Shown: positions 16,917-39,877, counted from the first letter of the stretch. The stretch is DNA of 64,000 nt from Minisyncoccota bacterium (GCA_035353995.1 DAOQAL010000002.1:28729-92728), one strand, 5' to 3'. A program made the numbers and translations. Notes: a model not told the origin generated them from the letters alone.

Positions 16917-16957
16917 AATTAAATTACACAGGGTAGTCCTGTGTAAAATTAGAAGTA

Positions 16958-16978
16958 GTGTCAAAGACCGTCTTTGAC
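16958..16978. repeat. REP-like perfect 21-bp palindrome TGTCAAAGACCGTCTTTGACA (copy A, intergenic)
   Basis: Exact copy of the palindrome that flanks the RAYT gene. It shares an extended ~34-bp unit with copy B (AGAAGTA-R-TGTCAAAGAC-S-GTCTTTGACAAATT). Confidence 0.6.
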
Positions 16979-17005
16979 AAATTATAAAGAATTTAAAATG
17001 AATTT

Positions 17006-17494
17006 ATGAAAATACCAGTTGTAAATGAAAATGATGAAGTAATAGAAATTAAGGACAGAAAAGATGTGGATAAAAGTCCTGAGCTAATTTACCGCGTTTC
17101 TTATCTTTGGGTTACTGATACTAATGGAAGAATACTTTTGGCTCAACGGGCATTTAATAAAAATCATAATCCAGGTAAATGGGGTCCAGCAGTAGCTGGT
17201 ACAGTTGAAGAAGGAGAAACTTATGAATCAAATATAATTAAAGAAACCGAAGAAGAAATTGGTATTAAGGACGTAAAATTAAAAATTGGGCAAAAAGAAA
17301 GAAGAAAAACTAATTATAATTATTTTGCACAAGAATTTTTGCTTGAATTGCCAGCTGGTTTTAATGATTTTAAAATTCAAGAAGTGGAGGTCGCTCAAAT
17401 TAAATGGTTTACTAAAGAGGAATTAAAAAAAGAGTTACAAGAGCACCCAGACAATTTTTTGTCATTAATTAAAAACAAAATTGATTTAATATGA
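17006..17494 (+). CDS. NUDIX hydrolase
   Basis: Nudix box GTVEEGETYESNIIKETEEEIGI (Gx5Ex7REUxEExGU). Confidence 0.7.
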   Translation: MKIPVVNENDEVIEIKDRKDVDKSPELIYRVSYLWVTDTNGRILLAQRAFNKNHNPGKWGPAVAGTVEEGETYESNIIKETEEEIGIKDVKLKIGQKERRKTNYNYFAQEFLLELPAGFNDFKIQEVEVAQIKWFTKEELKKELQEHPDNFLSLIKNKIDLI

Positions 17495-18738
17495 ATTTAG
17501 ACTTATCAAAAATTAAAAAGGTATATTTTATCGGAATCGGGGGAATTGGAATTTCGGCATTGGCGAAATGGGCCAGTGCGCGTGGAATGGAAGTTGCGGG
17601 TGTAAACGATGAAGAAGGAAAAACGACAGACTCCCTTAGAGAATTTGGTATAGAAGTAATGTCAAAGACGGTCTTTGACAAATTGCCAGAAGCTGATATG
17701 TATGTTTACTCAGATGCTTGGCTTAACCGTGGTCCAGAAATAATAGAAGACGCACGAAATACTGGTAAGCCAACCTTGTCTTATTTTGAAGCTCTTAAAG
17801 AATTTTCCAAAGATTATAAAGTTATAGCAATTTCTGGAACTCATGGTAAAACTACGACTACTGCAATGGTTGCTGATATATTAATTGATGCGGGCATAGA
17901 CCCGACGGTTATTGTTGGTTCTTTTGTTAAAAAGTTTGATAGTAATTTTCGAGAAGGCAAGAGTGAATATTTAATAGTAGAAGCTGACGAATATAATCGT
18001 CATTTTTTACAATTTAATCCTTTCATTGGTGCAGTAACCAACATCGAAGCTGACCATTTGGATTGTTATAAAGATTTAGATGATATAAAAAAATCTTTTG
18101 ATCAGTTTTTATCTCAAAGTGAACACAAAATAACAAATTACGAAAAATATTTAGAAAAAGTTCCCAAACTTCTTGTCCCTGGAGAGCACAACAGAAAAAA
18201 TGCAGCCTTAGCTCTTGCTGTTGCAGATCTTTTGGGTATTAAGGAAGAGCTTGCTATAAAATCTTTAGAAAATTTTGAAGGAACTTGGCGTCGTTTGGAA
18301 AAACGAGGGAAGACAAAAGCTGGTACCATTATTTATGATGATTATGCTCATCACCCAACAGAAGTTCGAGCTAGCTTGCAAGCATTAAGAGAGCTTTATA
18401 CAAAAGAACAAGGCAAAAAAATAACTGTAGTCTTTCAGCCACATTTGTATTCCAGAACCAAGGCTCTTTTTGACGATTTTGCCAAATGTTTCCACGGGGC
18501 GGACAAAATCGTCCTTTTGCCTATTTATTTTGCTAGAGAAAACCCTGATAAAAGCATTTCAAGCGGTCTTTTAGCAGATGCTATATGTGCAAATGGTGAT
18601 AAAGCTATAGCTTTTACTGATTTTGAACTGGCAGAAGAATATATAAAGAGTCAAACCTTTGGTAAAGATGACATTTTTGTGACTATGGGTGCAGGGGAGT
18701 CTTATAAAATAGCCGATAAGCTGTTTGATTTTCAATAA
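17491..18738 (+). CDS. murC: UDP-N-acetylmuramate--L-alanine ligase (MurC)
   Basis: VYFIGIGGIGISALA N-terminal motif, P-loop ISGTHGKTTTTAMVA, and a Mur ligase C-terminal domain. Codons 57-64 (MSKTVFDK) are encoded by the REP palindrome. Confidence 0.85.
   Translation: MNLDLSKIKKVYFIGIGGIGISALAKWASARGMEVAGVNDEEGKTTDSLREFGIEVMSKTVFDKLPEADMYVYSDAWLNRGPEIIEDARNTGKPTLSYFEALKEFSKDYKVIAISGTHGKTTTTAMVADILIDAGIDPTVIVGSFVKKFDSNFREGKSEYLIVEADEYNRHFLQFNPFIGAVTNIEADHLDCYKDLDDIKKSFDQFLSQSEHKITNYEKYLEKVPKLLVPGEHNRKNAALALAVADLLGIKEELAIKSLENFEGTWRRLEKRGKTKAGTIIYDDYAHHPTEVRASLQALRELYTKEQGKKITVVFQPHLYSRTKALFDDFAKCFHGADKIVLLPIYFARENPDKSISSGLLADAICANGDKAIAFTDFELAEEYIKSQTFGKDDIFVTMGAGESYKIADKLFDFQ
17660..17680. 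repeat. REP-like 21-bp palindrome TGTCAAAGACGGTCTTTGACA (copy B) lying in frame inside murC
   Basis: The same palindrome with the central base flipped. It lies within the murC reading frame without interrupting it. Confidence 0.6.
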
Positions 18739-25427: not shown

Positions 25428-27890
25428 ATGGCTAAAAAAACAATTGATCCAATAGAAAAAAAACCAAGAGAAGATGAAATTCTTCCAGTAAACATAGTTA
25501 GCGAAATGAAAGAGTCGTATTTGGCTTATGCTATGTCTGTTATTACATCACGTGCATTGCCAGACGTAAGAGATGGATTAAAACCTGTTCACAGAAGAAT
25601 ATTATTTGCTATGAATGAAATGGGACTTACTTCAAGTTCTAGATTTAGAAAATCCGCTGCTGTTGTTGGAGATGTTTTAGGAAAATATCATCCTCACGGA
25701 GATGTGGCAGTGTATGACACAATGGTTGGTATGGCACAAGAATTTTCTTATCGTTATCCTTTTATTTTAGGTCAAGGTAACTTTGGTTCTATAGATGGAG
25801 ACAGTGCAGCTGCAATGCGTTATACAGAGACGAAGATGGCAAAAATTTCTAATGAACTTTTAAAAGATTTAGATAAAGAAACAGTTGATTTTCGTCCAAA
25901 CTATGACCAAACACGTAAAGAACCGACAGTTCTTCCTGCAGCTGTTCCCGCATTGTTATTAAATGGAACACTTGGTATTGCTGTTGGTATGGCAACGAAT
26001 ATCCCACCTCACAATTTAGCAGAAGTTGTAGATGCAACAAGATTTTTAATTGATAAAGAAGATGCAACTACAGAAGATTTAATGCAATTTATTAAAGGGC
26101 CTGATTTTCCTACTGGTGGAATTGCTTATGGATATAAAGATATTCTTCATGCATATTCTTCAGGACGTGGAGGTGTTGTTTGTAGAGGAGAAGCTGAAAT
26201 AATTGAAACAAAAGGAGGAATGTACCAAATAGTTATAACTTCTATTCCTTTTAGAGTAAATAAAGCAAACTTAATAATGTCTATTGCAGACCTTGTTCAA
26301 GAAAAAAAGCTTGAAGGTATAAAAGGGTTAAGAGATGAATCTACAAAAGATATTCGTATAGTTATTGATTTAAAAAGTGGTGCTCATCCTGAAAAAATTC
26401 TAAATTATATTTATAAAAATACTCAACTTGAATCAAATTTCAATTTTAATATTGTTGCATTAGTTGATGGAGTGCCACAAACACTTTCTCTAAAATCTAT
26501 TCTTGTTGAATTTATTGCTCATAGACGTGATGTTATAAAAAGAAGATGTCAATATGATTTAAGAAAAGCTGAAGAACGTGAACATATTTTATTAGGTCTT
26601 AAAAAAGCCCTTGATAAAATTGATAGAATCATAACTGTTATAAGAAATTCAAAAGACGCACAGATTGCAAAAATAAATTTGATAAAGGAATTTAAATTTT
26701 CTGATTTGCAGGCAGCTGCAATATTAGAAATTAAATTACAGAAATTAGCTGGATTAGAAAGAAAAGCAGTGGAAGATGAATTAGCAGAAAAACAGAAATT
26801 TATTAAGGAAATGAAAGAACTTTTAACAAGTCCTAAAAAAATGTTGAAAGTTGTATCAGACGAATTAAAAGAAATTCGTGATAGATATTTTGATGAGAGA
26901 AGAACAAAAATAATTAAAGGAGGAGTGAAAGAAATTAATGATGAAGATTTGATTCCAGATACAGAAACTGTTCTTGTTTTCACTGCTGGTGGATACGTAA
27001 AACGTACTGATCCTAGTGAATACAGAGCACAAAAGAGAGGGGGAGTTGGTGTTGTGGATTTAGAAACAAAAGAAGAAGATTTTGTAACGATGCTTGTTTC
27101 AGGGTCTACTCATAATGATTTGTTGTTCTTTACTAATACAGGAAAAGCTTATCAAATGAAAATGTATGATATTCCTGAAGGACGTCGTGCAACAAAAGGA
27201 AAATCAATTATGAACTTCTTGTCTCTTTCTGGAGATGAAAAAGTCACATCTATTTTGTCTCTACCAAAAGAAGCCAAAAAACTTCCTTCTTCTTTGGTTC
27301 TTGTAACAAAAAATGGAACAGCGAAAAAAATGTCAGGGGAAAGCTTTAAAGATGTTCGCCGAAGTGGAATTATTTCAATAAGATTAGATAAAGGTGACCA
27401 ATTAGTTCAAGCTCTTTTAGTTGATAAAGGTGACGAGATAATGATTGCAACAGAAGGAGGTCAGTCAATAAGATTCAAAGAAAGTGATGTTAGAGAAATG
27501 GGAAGAACTGCTGGCGGAGTGCGAGGAATTAAATTAGGAAAAAATGATGAAGTAATTGGTGTTGATGTTATTAAAAAAGATCAAAAAGATGGAGCATTTC
27601 TTACAATGAGTGCAAATGGTTTTGGTAAAAAAACTGCTCTTAAAGAATATAAAGTACAAAAGCGTGGTGGTTCAGGAATCAAAACAGCAAAAGTTACAAC
27701 AAAAACAGGAAAATTGATTGTAGCAAAAGTTTTGAGTACTGAAGAAGAAGAACTAATAGCAATGTCAAAAAAGGGACAAGTAATTAGAACTGCTCTAAAA
27801 GATATTCCATCATTAGGACGTCAAACTCAAGGAGTTACAATAATGCGTCTTCGCGCAGGGGACGGTATTGCATCTCTTACCTGCATGTAA
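25428..27890 (+). CDS. gyrA: DNA gyrase subunit A
   Basis: [26 protein letters not shown], the active-site Tyr region, and C-terminal beta-pinwheel repeats with GyrA-box-like QKRGGSG. Confidence 0.95.
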
Positions 27891-27909: not shown

Positions 27910-27930
27910 TGTCAAAGACCGTCTTTGACA
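27910..27930. repeat. REP palindrome TGTCAAAGACCGTCTTTGACA (copy C) overlapping the 3' end of the RAYT gene
   Basis: The last 7 codons of the RAYT ORF (KHVKDGL*) are read from this palindrome. Confidence 0.65.
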
Positions 27931-28541
27931 TGCTTGGTGTTATTGGCTATAGTTTCTTTTTCGAAATCTTTTTTGCTGAAAACTGATTCTAAAAAATCTT
28001 TAAATACGATTGATGAATTTCTATTTTCGGTAAAATCTTTATAGCTACTCCATTTATATTGACCAGGGTGTTTAACTAAACCATCCTTTACTGGATTCAT
28101 ATGTATATAAGCGGAAGTCCACATAAACTGCGGATTGTTTTCAATATTTACTGCTTTAAATTTATCTTGAAATACATGTCCAACTTTTTTATATTTTAAA
28201 TTTAGATATTTTGCATAGCTAGTACATGTTTGAGATATTAGCCTAGAAATAGGAACATCTCCGCATTGTTCTATCAATAAATGAAAATGATTTGGCATAA
28301 GGCAAAAAGAATGTAATTTAAATGATTTAGCATTTCCGTTTATTCTAATTCGTGAATTTTTTACTGACGATATGTCATCTTTTTTTAGAATTTCTTTATC
28401 TACTCCGAGAGATAGACCAAGTCTAAAAAGGAAAGCATTATAGTCGCTTTCTTCGTGGAAAATTTTTTCTTTATTATTACCTCGATTGTAAACATGCACC
28501 AAAGCACCAGGCATAAATGTTTTATAGTCTCTATTGTTCAT
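27912..28541 (-). mobile_element. REP-associated tyrosine transposase (RAYT), IS200/IS605 TnpA-like Y1 HUH enzyme
   Basis: HUH motif CLMPNHFHLLI. C-terminal catalytic-Tyr helix FMWTSAYIHMNPVKDGLVKHPGQYKWSSYKDF closely parallels E. coli RAYT (YafM) ...[28 protein letters not shown] as recalled from memory. N-terminal HVYNRGNNKEKIF. Flanked on both sides by the same palindrome. Confidence 0.8.
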
Positions 28542-28551
28542 AAATCAATTA

Positions 28552-28572
28552 TGTCAAAGACCGTCTTTGACA
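28552..28572. repeat. REP palindrome TGTCAAAGACCGTCTTTGACA (copy D), 11 bp upstream of the RAYT start codon
   Basis: Exact 21-bp copy. Confidence 0.65.
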
Positions 28573-38629: not shown

Positions 38630-39877
38630 ATGAAGAAATCAAAGGAAATATATTTAGATTATGCTTCAAGCACTCCAATAGAAAAGCGCGTTGTTTCTGC
38701 GATGAATCATATTATCAATAATAATTTCGCAAATCCGAGTGCTATTCATGAACTTGGTTTAAAATCTAAAGAAATTTTAAACAATGTAAGATCTAATATA
38801 GCAGATATTTTGGAAGTTAGGCCAAAAGAAATAATTTTTACAAGTGGTGCAACAGAAAATAATAATTTAGCAGTTTTAGGTATATTTCAAAAAACACATT
38901 TTAATTTTTTTCCTCACATTGTTACTACAAATATAGAGCATCCTTCTGTAATAGAAGTTTGTAAATATTTAGAAGAAACAAAACAAGCTGAAGTTACTTA
39001 TGTAAACGTAGAGCCAGATGGCATAGTTGACCCAAAAAAGATTAGTAAAGCTTTGAAAAAAAATACAGTGTTAGTTGCAATAATGTATGCGAATAATGAA
39101 ATAGGGACGATACAGCCAATAAAAGAAATTGCAAAAGAAATAAGACATTTTAAAAAAATGCAAATAGATACATTACTAAAAAAAGACAATACTATGTCTT
39201 CTCCTATTTTCCCAATTTTTTACGTTGATGCAACTCAAGCTGTAAATTATTTGCCAATTTCTGTGCCAAAACTCGGTGTAGATATGATGTCATTCAATGG
39301 AGATAAAATTTATGGTCCAAAGGATATAGGAGTTTTCTATTCTAGGAATAATATTCCATTAGGTAAAATCTTTTTTGGTGGTGATCAAGAATTTGGTAAA
39401 AGACCTGGTACAGAAAATCTTGCAAGTATCGTTGGATTGGATGAAGCGTTAAAAATTGTAGGAAAGATAAAAATTAATGAGAATAAAAGATTAATTAATC
39501 TAAGAAATTATTTTATTAAGCAATTAACAAATTCAAAAACTTTTAAAAAATATGGAATTTTGTTAAATGGAAGTTTGGAAAATAGATTGCCAAATAATAT
39601 AAATATAACAATACCAAAAATTCCAAGTGATTTACTCTTAGTAGAACTTTCTGCTAATGGAATATATGTTTCAGAAAAAAGTGCTTGCAAATCTGGTGAT
39701 AAAAAAAGTTCTCACGTTATTAATGCAATTTGTAATATTTCTGAATCAAATTCGTCAAATAAAGAGAGTAATTCCCTAAGATTTTCTTTGGGCAGAAGTA
39801 CAACAAAAGATGATTTAAATTACACCCTAAAGGTATTAGCTTCGACATTGAAAAAACTAGAAAAATGGTATTGCTAA
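38630..39877 (+). CDS. Cysteine desulfurase-family aminotransferase class V (NifS/IscS-like)
   Basis: IYLDYASSTP N-terminus; PLP-lysine region SFNGDKIYGPKDIGVFYSR. Confidence 0.7.
   Translation: MKKSKEIYLDYASSTPIEKRVVSAMNHIINNNFANPSAIHELGLKSKEILNNVRSNIADILEVRPKEIIFTSGATENNNLAVLGIFQKTHFNFFPHIVTTNIEHPSVIEVCKYLEETKQAEVTYVNVEPDGIVDPKKISKALKKNTVLVAIMYANNEIGTIQPIKEIAKEIRHFKKMQIDTLLKKDNTMSSPIFPIFYVDATQAVNYLPISVPKLGVDMMSFNGDKIYGPKDIGVFYSRNNIPLGKIFFGGDQEFGKRPGTENLASIVGLDEALKIVGKIKINENKRLINLRNYFIKQLTNSKTFKKYGILLNGSLENRLPNNINITIPKIPSDLLLVELSANGIYVSEKSACKSGDKKSSHVINAICNISESNSSNKESNSLRFSLGRSTTKDDLNYTLKVLASTLKKLEKWYC

Follow-up and report, generated by a model that had tools for sequence, protein, structure and literature searches.

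A 21-bp palindrome, probably a REP-type element, is translated in frame within murC and brackets a RAYT-like gene in Patescibacteria

The window, that is, the whole stretch of 64,000 nt of DNA that was analysed, contains a complete copy of murC, an essential gene of cell-wall synthesis, with a perfect 21-bp palindrome inside its reading frame, and a RAYT-like gene that lies between two further copies of this palindrome. The features on which the analysis is based are the following, with coordinates counted over the whole window.

16951..16983, plus strand: extended match of palindrome copy 1 to the murC copy (17652-17684), reading TAGAAGTA-R-palindrome-AATT
16959..16979, no strand: palindrome copy 1, intergenic, 42 nt past the stop codon of an Amphi-Trp ORF and 26 nt before the ATG of a Nudix gene (17006)
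17469..17681, minus strand: antisense ORF that starts (TTG) with MSKTVFD, a by-product of the palindrome
17491..18738, plus strand: murC (UDP-N-acetylmuramate--L-alanine ligase), the host gene, full length with all three Mur ligase domains
17660..17680, no strand: palindrome copy 2, in the murC frame, codons 57-63 reading MSKTVFD
25428..27890, plus strand: gyrA, upstream synteny anchor of the RAYT module
27910..27930, no strand: palindrome copy 3, overlapping the end of the RAYT-like gene (five codons plus the TGA stop) and read there in the third frame (VKDGL*)
27912..28541, minus strand: RAYT-like HUH tyrosine (Y1) transposase of 209 aa, with HUH motif NHFHLL and Tyr motif YIHMNPVK
28552..28572, no strand: palindrome copy 4, upstream of the RAYT gene, 10 nt from its start codon
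28647..29174, plus strand: SAM methyltransferase, downstream synteny anchor of the RAYT module

The 21-mer TGTCAAAGACGGTCTTTGACA at 17660-17680 is perfectly palindromic, its two 10-nt arms flanking a central G, and so has the form TGTCAAAGAC-G-GTCTTTGACA. It lies inside murC and touches codons 57-64, its final base being the first base of codon 64; the region 17647-17688 reads GGT ATA GAA GTA ATG TCA AAG ACG GTC TTT GAC AAA TTG CCA. An earlier note on this DNA had described a 21-bp palindrome within the murC frame that encodes MSKTVFD on both strands, and this is a real observation, confirmed by both the sequence and the ORF (17491-18738, 415 codons). The antisense ORF at 17469-17681 described in the same note is also present and does open with MSKTVFD; we rejected it as a gene, such a start being an automatic result of the palindrome. 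The possibility, likewise raised there, that the true start of murC lies downstream of 17680 does not hold. The GIGGxG motif of MurC corresponds to residues 15-20, and alignments to solved MurC structures start at MurC residues 5-10. Because both begin before codon 57, the murC start is located upstream of the palindrome, which is therefore truly intragenic. As single-stranded DNA, each copy can form a hairpin with a 9-bp stem and a 3-nt loop (about -7.5 kcal/mol).

A search of the window for the pattern TGTCAAAGAC-N-GTCTTTGACA gave four matches, at positions 16959, 17660, 27910 and 28552, versus none in 100 dinucleotide-preserving shuffles. Copies with one to five mismatches were not found in the 64,000-nt window, and the 10-nt half-site, tested as an independent unit, never occurs alone. 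Copies 1 and 2 share more than the palindrome: 8 nt to its left and 4 nt to its right are the same, and 13 of 20 flank positions are identical. Because these shared flanks are native codons in murC (I-E-V and K-L), they suggest, and are suggestive only, that copy 1 was copied from the murC copy. Between copies 1 and 2 lie the Nudix gene and the initial 56 codons of murC, and at the position of the Nudix gene the closest relative, L187, has a different gene of 223 aa. The statistics of the flanks are only suggestive of a local copy event or a cassette exchange. A separate hairpin, TTACACAGG-GTAGT-CCTGTGTAA, is present at 16924-16946, just past the Amphi-Trp ORF and 12 nt upstream of copy 1, and appears terminator-like on the minus strand in our scan.

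Among GTDB species genomes, exact copies of the palindrome were identified in 107 stretches, which with few exceptions come from Patescibacteria; almost all of these stretches are labelled Patescibacteria, Paceibacterota, Nomurabacteria or Zambryskibacteria. A collection of 2.9 million viral contigs gave no exact match. Contigs L018 (labelled Bacteroidota) and L055/L091 (labelled Simkania) have CPR-type genes and synteny, e.g. gyrA-RAYT-methyltransferase with 83% GyrA identity, and are probably mis-binned. The palindrome is also present on L105, which is labelled Burkholderiales. The window and the 107 loci together contain 129 exact copies, and 78 of these are located in long open frames (120 codons or more), in which they are read as [M/V/L]SKTVFD. 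Nine copies are in the CQR[R/P]SLT frame and none is in the third frame, which contains a TGA. Because the central base is the third position of the Thr codon, the SKTVFD peptide is the same in either orientation of the palindrome, and because the other frames give CQR[R/P]SLT or a TGA, the intragenic survivors are nearly all found in the SKTVFD frame. Of the 129 copies, 118 have C or G at the centre, even though the genome is AT-rich. The sampled host ORFs encode UvrA, UvrC, NAD-dependent DNA ligase (LigA), the delta' subunit of Pol III (HolB), RNase H, LeuRS, a class II aaRS, a NifS-like aminotransferase and a reverse transcriptase, those identified by gene name being uvrA, uvrC, ligA, leuS and rnhA; the host genes are thus biased towards genome maintenance. 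In the gene for the reverse transcriptase (RVT_1), the palindrome is at an orthologous position in four species (L014, L018, L031 and L098).

The best-sampled genomes have five to eight exact copies each, as counted from 8-kb stretches, and the density is about one copy per 16-40 kb. A flank profile of 124 copies showed only a purine (R) at position -1 and a pyrimidine (Y) at +1, and neither a conserved 5' tetranucleotide tag (GTAG/GTGG) nor a target motif was detected beside the stem in these copies. Since no flank motif extends beyond R -1 and Y +1, the repeat unit is 21-23 bp long, and it lacks the GTAG tag known from classical REPs. About a sixth only of the copies form doublets, in which a canonical copy is combined with a copy of a GG/CC dialect; such doublets are found in different genes (L025, L045, L057, L075, L095, L106 and others). 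Their start-to-start distance is often 27 bp, and the spacer is always 6 nt long and varies in sequence.

It could be argued that the recurrence of the peptide reflects chance, or selection of an SKTVFD motif at the protein level. The murC DNA was compared across 49 orthologues. The identical palindrome is present at the murC site in L108, L083/L114, L100/L117 and L028, being shifted by one codon in the latter, whose MurC has an unchanged total length. Other relatives contain variant palindromes at this site, all with matching arms: TGTCAAAGGCCGCCTTTGACA in L130, TGTCAAGGG-GCA-CCCTTGACA in L112, TGTCAAAGG-CAA-CCTTTGACA in L134, TGTCAAAG-ATGCC-CTTTGACA in L122 and L139, and TGTGTCAAAG-GGCAT-CTTTGACACA in L187. 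The palindrome-bearing orthologues are scattered on a neighbour-joining tree built with the site excluded; although this is a rough tree, we rejected a single origin of the palindrome on it. In the murC flanks of five species, 51% of the codons at identical amino acids are identical, versus all five degenerate codons of the palindrome. Moreover, the three SKTVFD alleles that were obtained by MurC similarity search, and not by pattern search, all have the exact palindromic DNA. The earlier note had considered that orthologues might carry the same residues without any palindromic DNA. We found the opposite: all seven SKTVFD loci with readable DNA, among which are some near-duplicates and the three from the similarity search, have identical palindromic DNA. 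Because the codons of the palindrome are fixed while those of the flanks have drifted, the constraint acts on the DNA and not on the peptide. Judged by these codon comparisons, then, it is the DNA that is kept constant, and selection is not for the peptide. Apart from the recurrence of the peptide, nothing speaks for chance or for a protein motif; zero copies are expected by chance, intergenic copies exist and the host proteins are unrelated, and we regard this explanation as already refuted. For annotation this means that SKTVFD, SRTVLD or CQRPSLT, where they recur in proteins of Paceibacteria, are encoded by the repeat and do not constitute a functional motif. MurC identity profiles of the N-terminal 56 aa versus the rest of the protein, which bear on recombination at the palindrome, were noisy.

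Variation of the palindrome preserves its symmetry. Across all loci, copies with one mismatch are rare (2), versus 14 copies with two mismatches, nearly all of which have matching changes on both arms. The main dialect is TGTCAAGGAC-N-GTCCTTGACA, which reads SRTVLD. Eight of 21 distinct variants have G·C in place of A·T at pair 7-15, and five of the 21 show covariation at pair 9-13; the covariation score of the variants was reached by no shuffle, it being understood that the control slides and shuffles carry caveats stated by the tool itself.

Copies 3 and 4 bracket the RAYT-like gene. Its product matches Pfam family Y1_Tnp (PF01797; E 4e-10, 40 bits, above the cut-off of 23), and its sole NCBIfam match is NF047646 (REP-associated tyrosine transposase, REP_Tyr_transpos), with 65 bits, which is below the equivalog cut-off of 80 bits. 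In the PDB, the sole match is TnpArep of E. coli (4ER8; E = 0.012), and the alignment with it includes both the HUH motif and the catalytic Tyr motif. The order gyrA-RAYT(-)-methyltransferase, with the palindrome beside the RAYT gene, is found in at least 10 related species, the methyltransferase being present usually, not always, and the palindrome is located on both sides of the RAYT gene wherever both ends fall within the fetched stretch. Across the syntenic species, the RAYT proteins are 56-64% identical, and identity of the GyrA C-terminus is 60-86%, exceeding 80% in most. Because this gene order is conserved, comparative evidence indicates that the RAYT gene is a single-locus gene that is vertically inherited. 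Furthermore, seven of eight distant RAYT paralogues from the fetched loci (27-35% identity) have their own distinct palindrome of 15-27 bp, either on both sides of the gene or with a second copy inside it, and several of these palindromes also occur in long ORFs, e.g. in murD of L122. A gene together with its cognate palindrome is the hallmark of REP/RAYT systems, or "REPtrons" (PMC3733652). It is mainly because of this architecture that we retain the label REP used in the earlier note, which appears well supported by the RAYT-like gene flanked by two palindrome copies and its synteny in at least 10 species. It should be noted, however, that the absence of a GTAG-type tag, the low copy number, the small share of copies that form doublets, the sub-cut-off RAYT score and a length difference of zero (see below) are points against a REP/RAYT reading.

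The region between murD and murC also hosts other elements. Its contents vary by species, and may be a Nudix gene, a Tle3-like gene, a RAYT gene or nothing. Distant RAYT paralogues with their own flanking palindromes are located between murD and murC in L126 (964-1665) and L145 (305-1043). The murD gene of L187 (Ga0172371_10001899) contains a perfect 47-bp palindrome, CCCCAAAGCCTTGCTTAGGGGAATTTCCCCTAAGCAAGGCTTTGGGG, in frame at L187:1951-1997; the corresponding segment is about 16 aa (…GSPKALLRGISPKQGFG…), which is 12 aa longer than in the window's MurD, where it reads YQDG. A different RAYT-associated palindrome is present at the same murD site in L122. The 47-bp palindrome was considered as a repeat family and rejected, as among the fetched loci only L187 and L188 have it.

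According to the earlier note, the REP copy in murC constitutes a precise 7-aa insertion, tolerated in a poorly conserved loop. The alignments do not bear this out. Firstly, residues 5-208 of MurC align with MurC of Yersinia, E. coli and Haemophilus without a gap at the palindrome site, MSKTVFD being aligned with YFHHRPE of Yersinia MurC (4HV4) in an ungapped local alignment. Secondly, tblastn searches yielded the same ungapped correspondence for at least 30 MurC genes of other phyla, e.g. GAEIYIGHNRENIKDVDLVVY. Thirdly, most of 120 MurC orthologues with 70-80% identity have a segment of the same length at this place, e.g. LKKDFK, QKDYK or QNELK, the sequence of an "empty" murC allele being …GTAATTTTAAAAAAAGATTTTAAAAGT…. 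On the basis of these alignments, the murC copy adds no codons and appears to replace seven existing ones. The segment lies in the N-terminal domain, in a hypervariable stretch. A floppy or disordered loop it is not, according to the AlphaFold model (pLDDT 92), in which residues 57-63 comprise the end of strand beta3 (55-58), a one-turn helix (59-61) and the beginning of the connection to beta4; the model thus depicts a structured surface connection. This segment of MurC (17659-17700 in the window, and the orthologous sites P0001-P0120) is a hot spot for different segment types. Other recurrent types, LSDLPAEALAKAG, REEFFESAPSETKGQGTHTILKIP and RTVLKEVPKDGPF, are found in orthologues that are scattered on the tree, and L123 has at the same place an unrelated palindrome with 12-bp arms, GGTGCCAAAATC…GATTTTGGCACC.

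The length comparison was extended to the other loci by comparing palindrome-bearing ORFs with orthologues that lack the palindrome. The commonest length difference is zero (14 comparisons); many differences are +1 to +3, and a few are +5 to +7. UvrC is one residue longer than the solved B. caldotenax domain, SYMSKTVFD being aligned with SYFTGT-HD. In addition, "empty" sites often share residues with SKTVFD: F/Y in MurC (LKKDFK) and LeuRS, FTGT-HD in UvrC, S..FD in the orthologues of the L099 gene and SKTF at position 39533 of the window. The latter site (39533-39550) is in a NifS-like gene, which reads N-SKTF-KK (TCAAAAACTTTTAAA) where L040, L042 and L067 carry the palindrome; this near-miss, one codon shorter, could be a decayed copy or a proto-site. 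Near-gapless MurC and UvrC alignments and residue-sharing "empty" sites, like the points against a REP/RAYT reading given above, are unlike what classical cut-or-copy-and-paste would predict.

These data bear directly on the view that a 21-bp REP was inserted in frame into a tolerant loop of murC by simple transposition, adding seven residues. Some members of the family do resemble insertions: compared with the respective orthologues, RNase H has 5 aa more, LigA 6 aa and the product of one gene 7 aa, doublets (dialect plus canonical copy) add 13-16 aa relative to the window's own orthologue, and MurC of P0010, P0020 and P0024 reads LKKDL+MSKTVFD, which is 5 aa longer. However, the window's MurC has no extra residues compared to solved MurC proteins or most orthologues, the palindrome of L028 is one codon off at the same total length, and zero is the commonest difference across genes. 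Simple transposition is therefore an improbable account of the murC copy, and the family shows both replacement-like and insertion-like events.

Another possibility is that the palindrome in murC functions at the level of RNA or transcription, as a pause site, attenuator, internal promoter or terminator. The TTGACA ends on both strands, the stable stem and a weak terminator-like site on the minus strand in a simple scan would be in line with such a regulatory hairpin. However, promoter and terminator scans around all four copies gave matches at or near shuffled expectation, without consistent placement with respect to genes, the RNA fold of the murC context is ordinary (z = -1.25), and the same 21-mer is present at unrelated positions in many unrelated genes. 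We therefore consider a regulatory role of this kind highly improbable.

The main rival explanation holds that the palindrome is a non-mobile recognition site that evolved in place under some drive. It would be a binding or uptake signal, e.g. one that serves a domesticated RAYT with a function in the chromosome or one akin to a DNA uptake sequence (DUS), and would have arisen by point mutations at compatible codons. Selection, or biased recombination among relatives, would then have spread or maintained it. Length neutrality, orthologous positions across species, residues shared with "empty" sites, the variant dialects, extreme sequence identity across many species and the low copy number all fit this explanation. 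A bias of host genes towards genome maintenance has also been reported for uptake sequences. The host bias observed here, which is as for intragenic REPs (PMC3733652), fits it as well. On the other hand, twenty specified bases are much to assemble by point mutation, the half-site is never found alone and one-mismatch intermediates are nearly absent. In addition, the density is far below that of known uptake sequences, an uptake signal would leave unexplained why RAYT paralogues are bracketed by palindromes of their own, and inserted doublets exist. On balance, we consider evolution in place unlikely.

The repeat itself, its frame, its association with the RAYT-like gene, its conservation at the DNA level, its symmetry-preserving variation and the absence of a net insertion in murC lead us to a reading that we favour, with some reservation, as the probable one: the 21-bp palindrome is a REP-type element, the hairpin of a vertically inherited RAYT, and its murC copy is length-neutral and translated. 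The palindrome would be a DNA hairpin recognised by the RAYT encoded at 27912-28541, which is the candidate recogniser. The murC copy would be one of many intragenic members, occupying seven pre-existing codons of a hypervariable N-terminal stretch at the end of beta3 and the following turn, and would have arisen by replacement of the resident segment and not by simple 21-bp transposition. We infer exchange or in-place evolution because single-strand "peel and paste" would add 21 bp, unlike what is seen in murC. The constancy of the sequence may be due to RAYT-dependent re-copying or exchange between hairpins, to hairpin-templated correction, or to both; the RAYT, acting on the hairpins, would then be responsible for the creation and homogenisation of the copies. 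A more specific version of the REP reading, which we put forward tentatively and with considerable doubt, is a length-neutral exchange in which, on single-stranded DNA, the hairpin takes the place of 21 nt of resident sequence. This could generate a REP family that resides mainly in essential CPR genes, overwrites them at structurally tolerant sites, seven codons at a time, and is homogenised across copies and species. If true, such an exchange would be a mode of REP propagation that has not been described for any RAYT.

How does this family compare with known systems? The Y1 HUH transposase fold and the hairpins by the gene ends are reminiscent of IS200/IS605 elements. Unlike these elements, however, the RAYT-like gene is not multi-copy, keeps its chromosomal location across at least 10 species and is not accompanied by tnpB, and the same perfect palindrome is present on both flanks instead of distinct left-end and right-end structures.

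DUS/USS and chromosomal palindromic sites such as parS are short exact motifs that are located mostly in genes, at orthologous positions and in a tolerated frame, that exist in dialects and that are length-neutral. The motif described here resembles such sites in all of these respects, but it is considerably longer, forms a perfect palindrome, occurs at a far lower density and is linked to RAYT genes. A DNA uptake sequence has a short non-palindromic core that is present about once per kb and also occurs singly, whereas there are four copies in 64 kb here and the half-site is never alone.

The Rickettsia palindromic elements (RPE of Ogata et al.) are reportedly the classic case of in-frame palindromes. 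Intragenic REPs have already been described in several species, where they are biased to replication/repair genes and tRNA synthetases (Di Nocera et al. 2013, PMC3733652). The statement in the earlier note that coding-region REPs are rarely documented is thus overstated, intragenic REPs having been catalogued, many of them in repair genes (PMC3733652). The intragenic copies make up a minority in those cases and are described as insertions by which the protein gains residues (20-30 aa for dimers), RPE-1 being described only as a longer palindromic insertion (PMC3733652). Our family is like intragenic REPs and RPE in that palindromic repeats are translated in frame in housekeeping genes, with a bias to DNA repair/replication and tRNA synthetases. 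It differs from them in that the unit is 21 bp, most copies are intragenic and no residue is added by the murC copy; unlike in an RPE-like insertion element, the difference is 0 aa in MurC and most commonly zero family-wide.

The closest parallel is with the REP/RAYT systems (REPtrons), such as E. coli TnpArep with REP/BIME and the REPIN-RAYT systems of Pseudomonas. As in those systems, a single-locus, syntenic HUH Y1 gene is bracketed by a dispersed short palindrome with a hairpin stem of 9 bp, each RAYT paralogue has its own palindrome, and two dialects are combined as doublets, which may be compared with the Y/Z REPs of BIMEs or with REPIN doublets. Unlike the known REPs, which are numerous and extragenic, the palindrome lacks a GTAG tag and has five to eight exact copies in a genome where REPs have tens to hundreds, at least 60% of its copies are intragenic in one frame and many are length-neutral, the identical sequence is common to many species, and the host phylum is Patescibacteria. 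In the limited literature that could be searched, no relevant report was found of REP/RAYT in CPR, Patescibacteria or Parcubacteria, nor of the sequence or the peptide. The prevailing view is that REP/RAYT systems are extragenic and occur mostly in Proteobacteria, and the origin of their copies is unsettled; with the CPR family, there is now a concrete case for testing whether a RAYT can overwrite DNA instead of inserting into it. The family also illustrates how selfish or domesticated repeats are accommodated in very compact genomes. Compared with the known systems, what is new here is the phylum, the intragenic majority in one frame, the exact conservation across species and the length neutrality.
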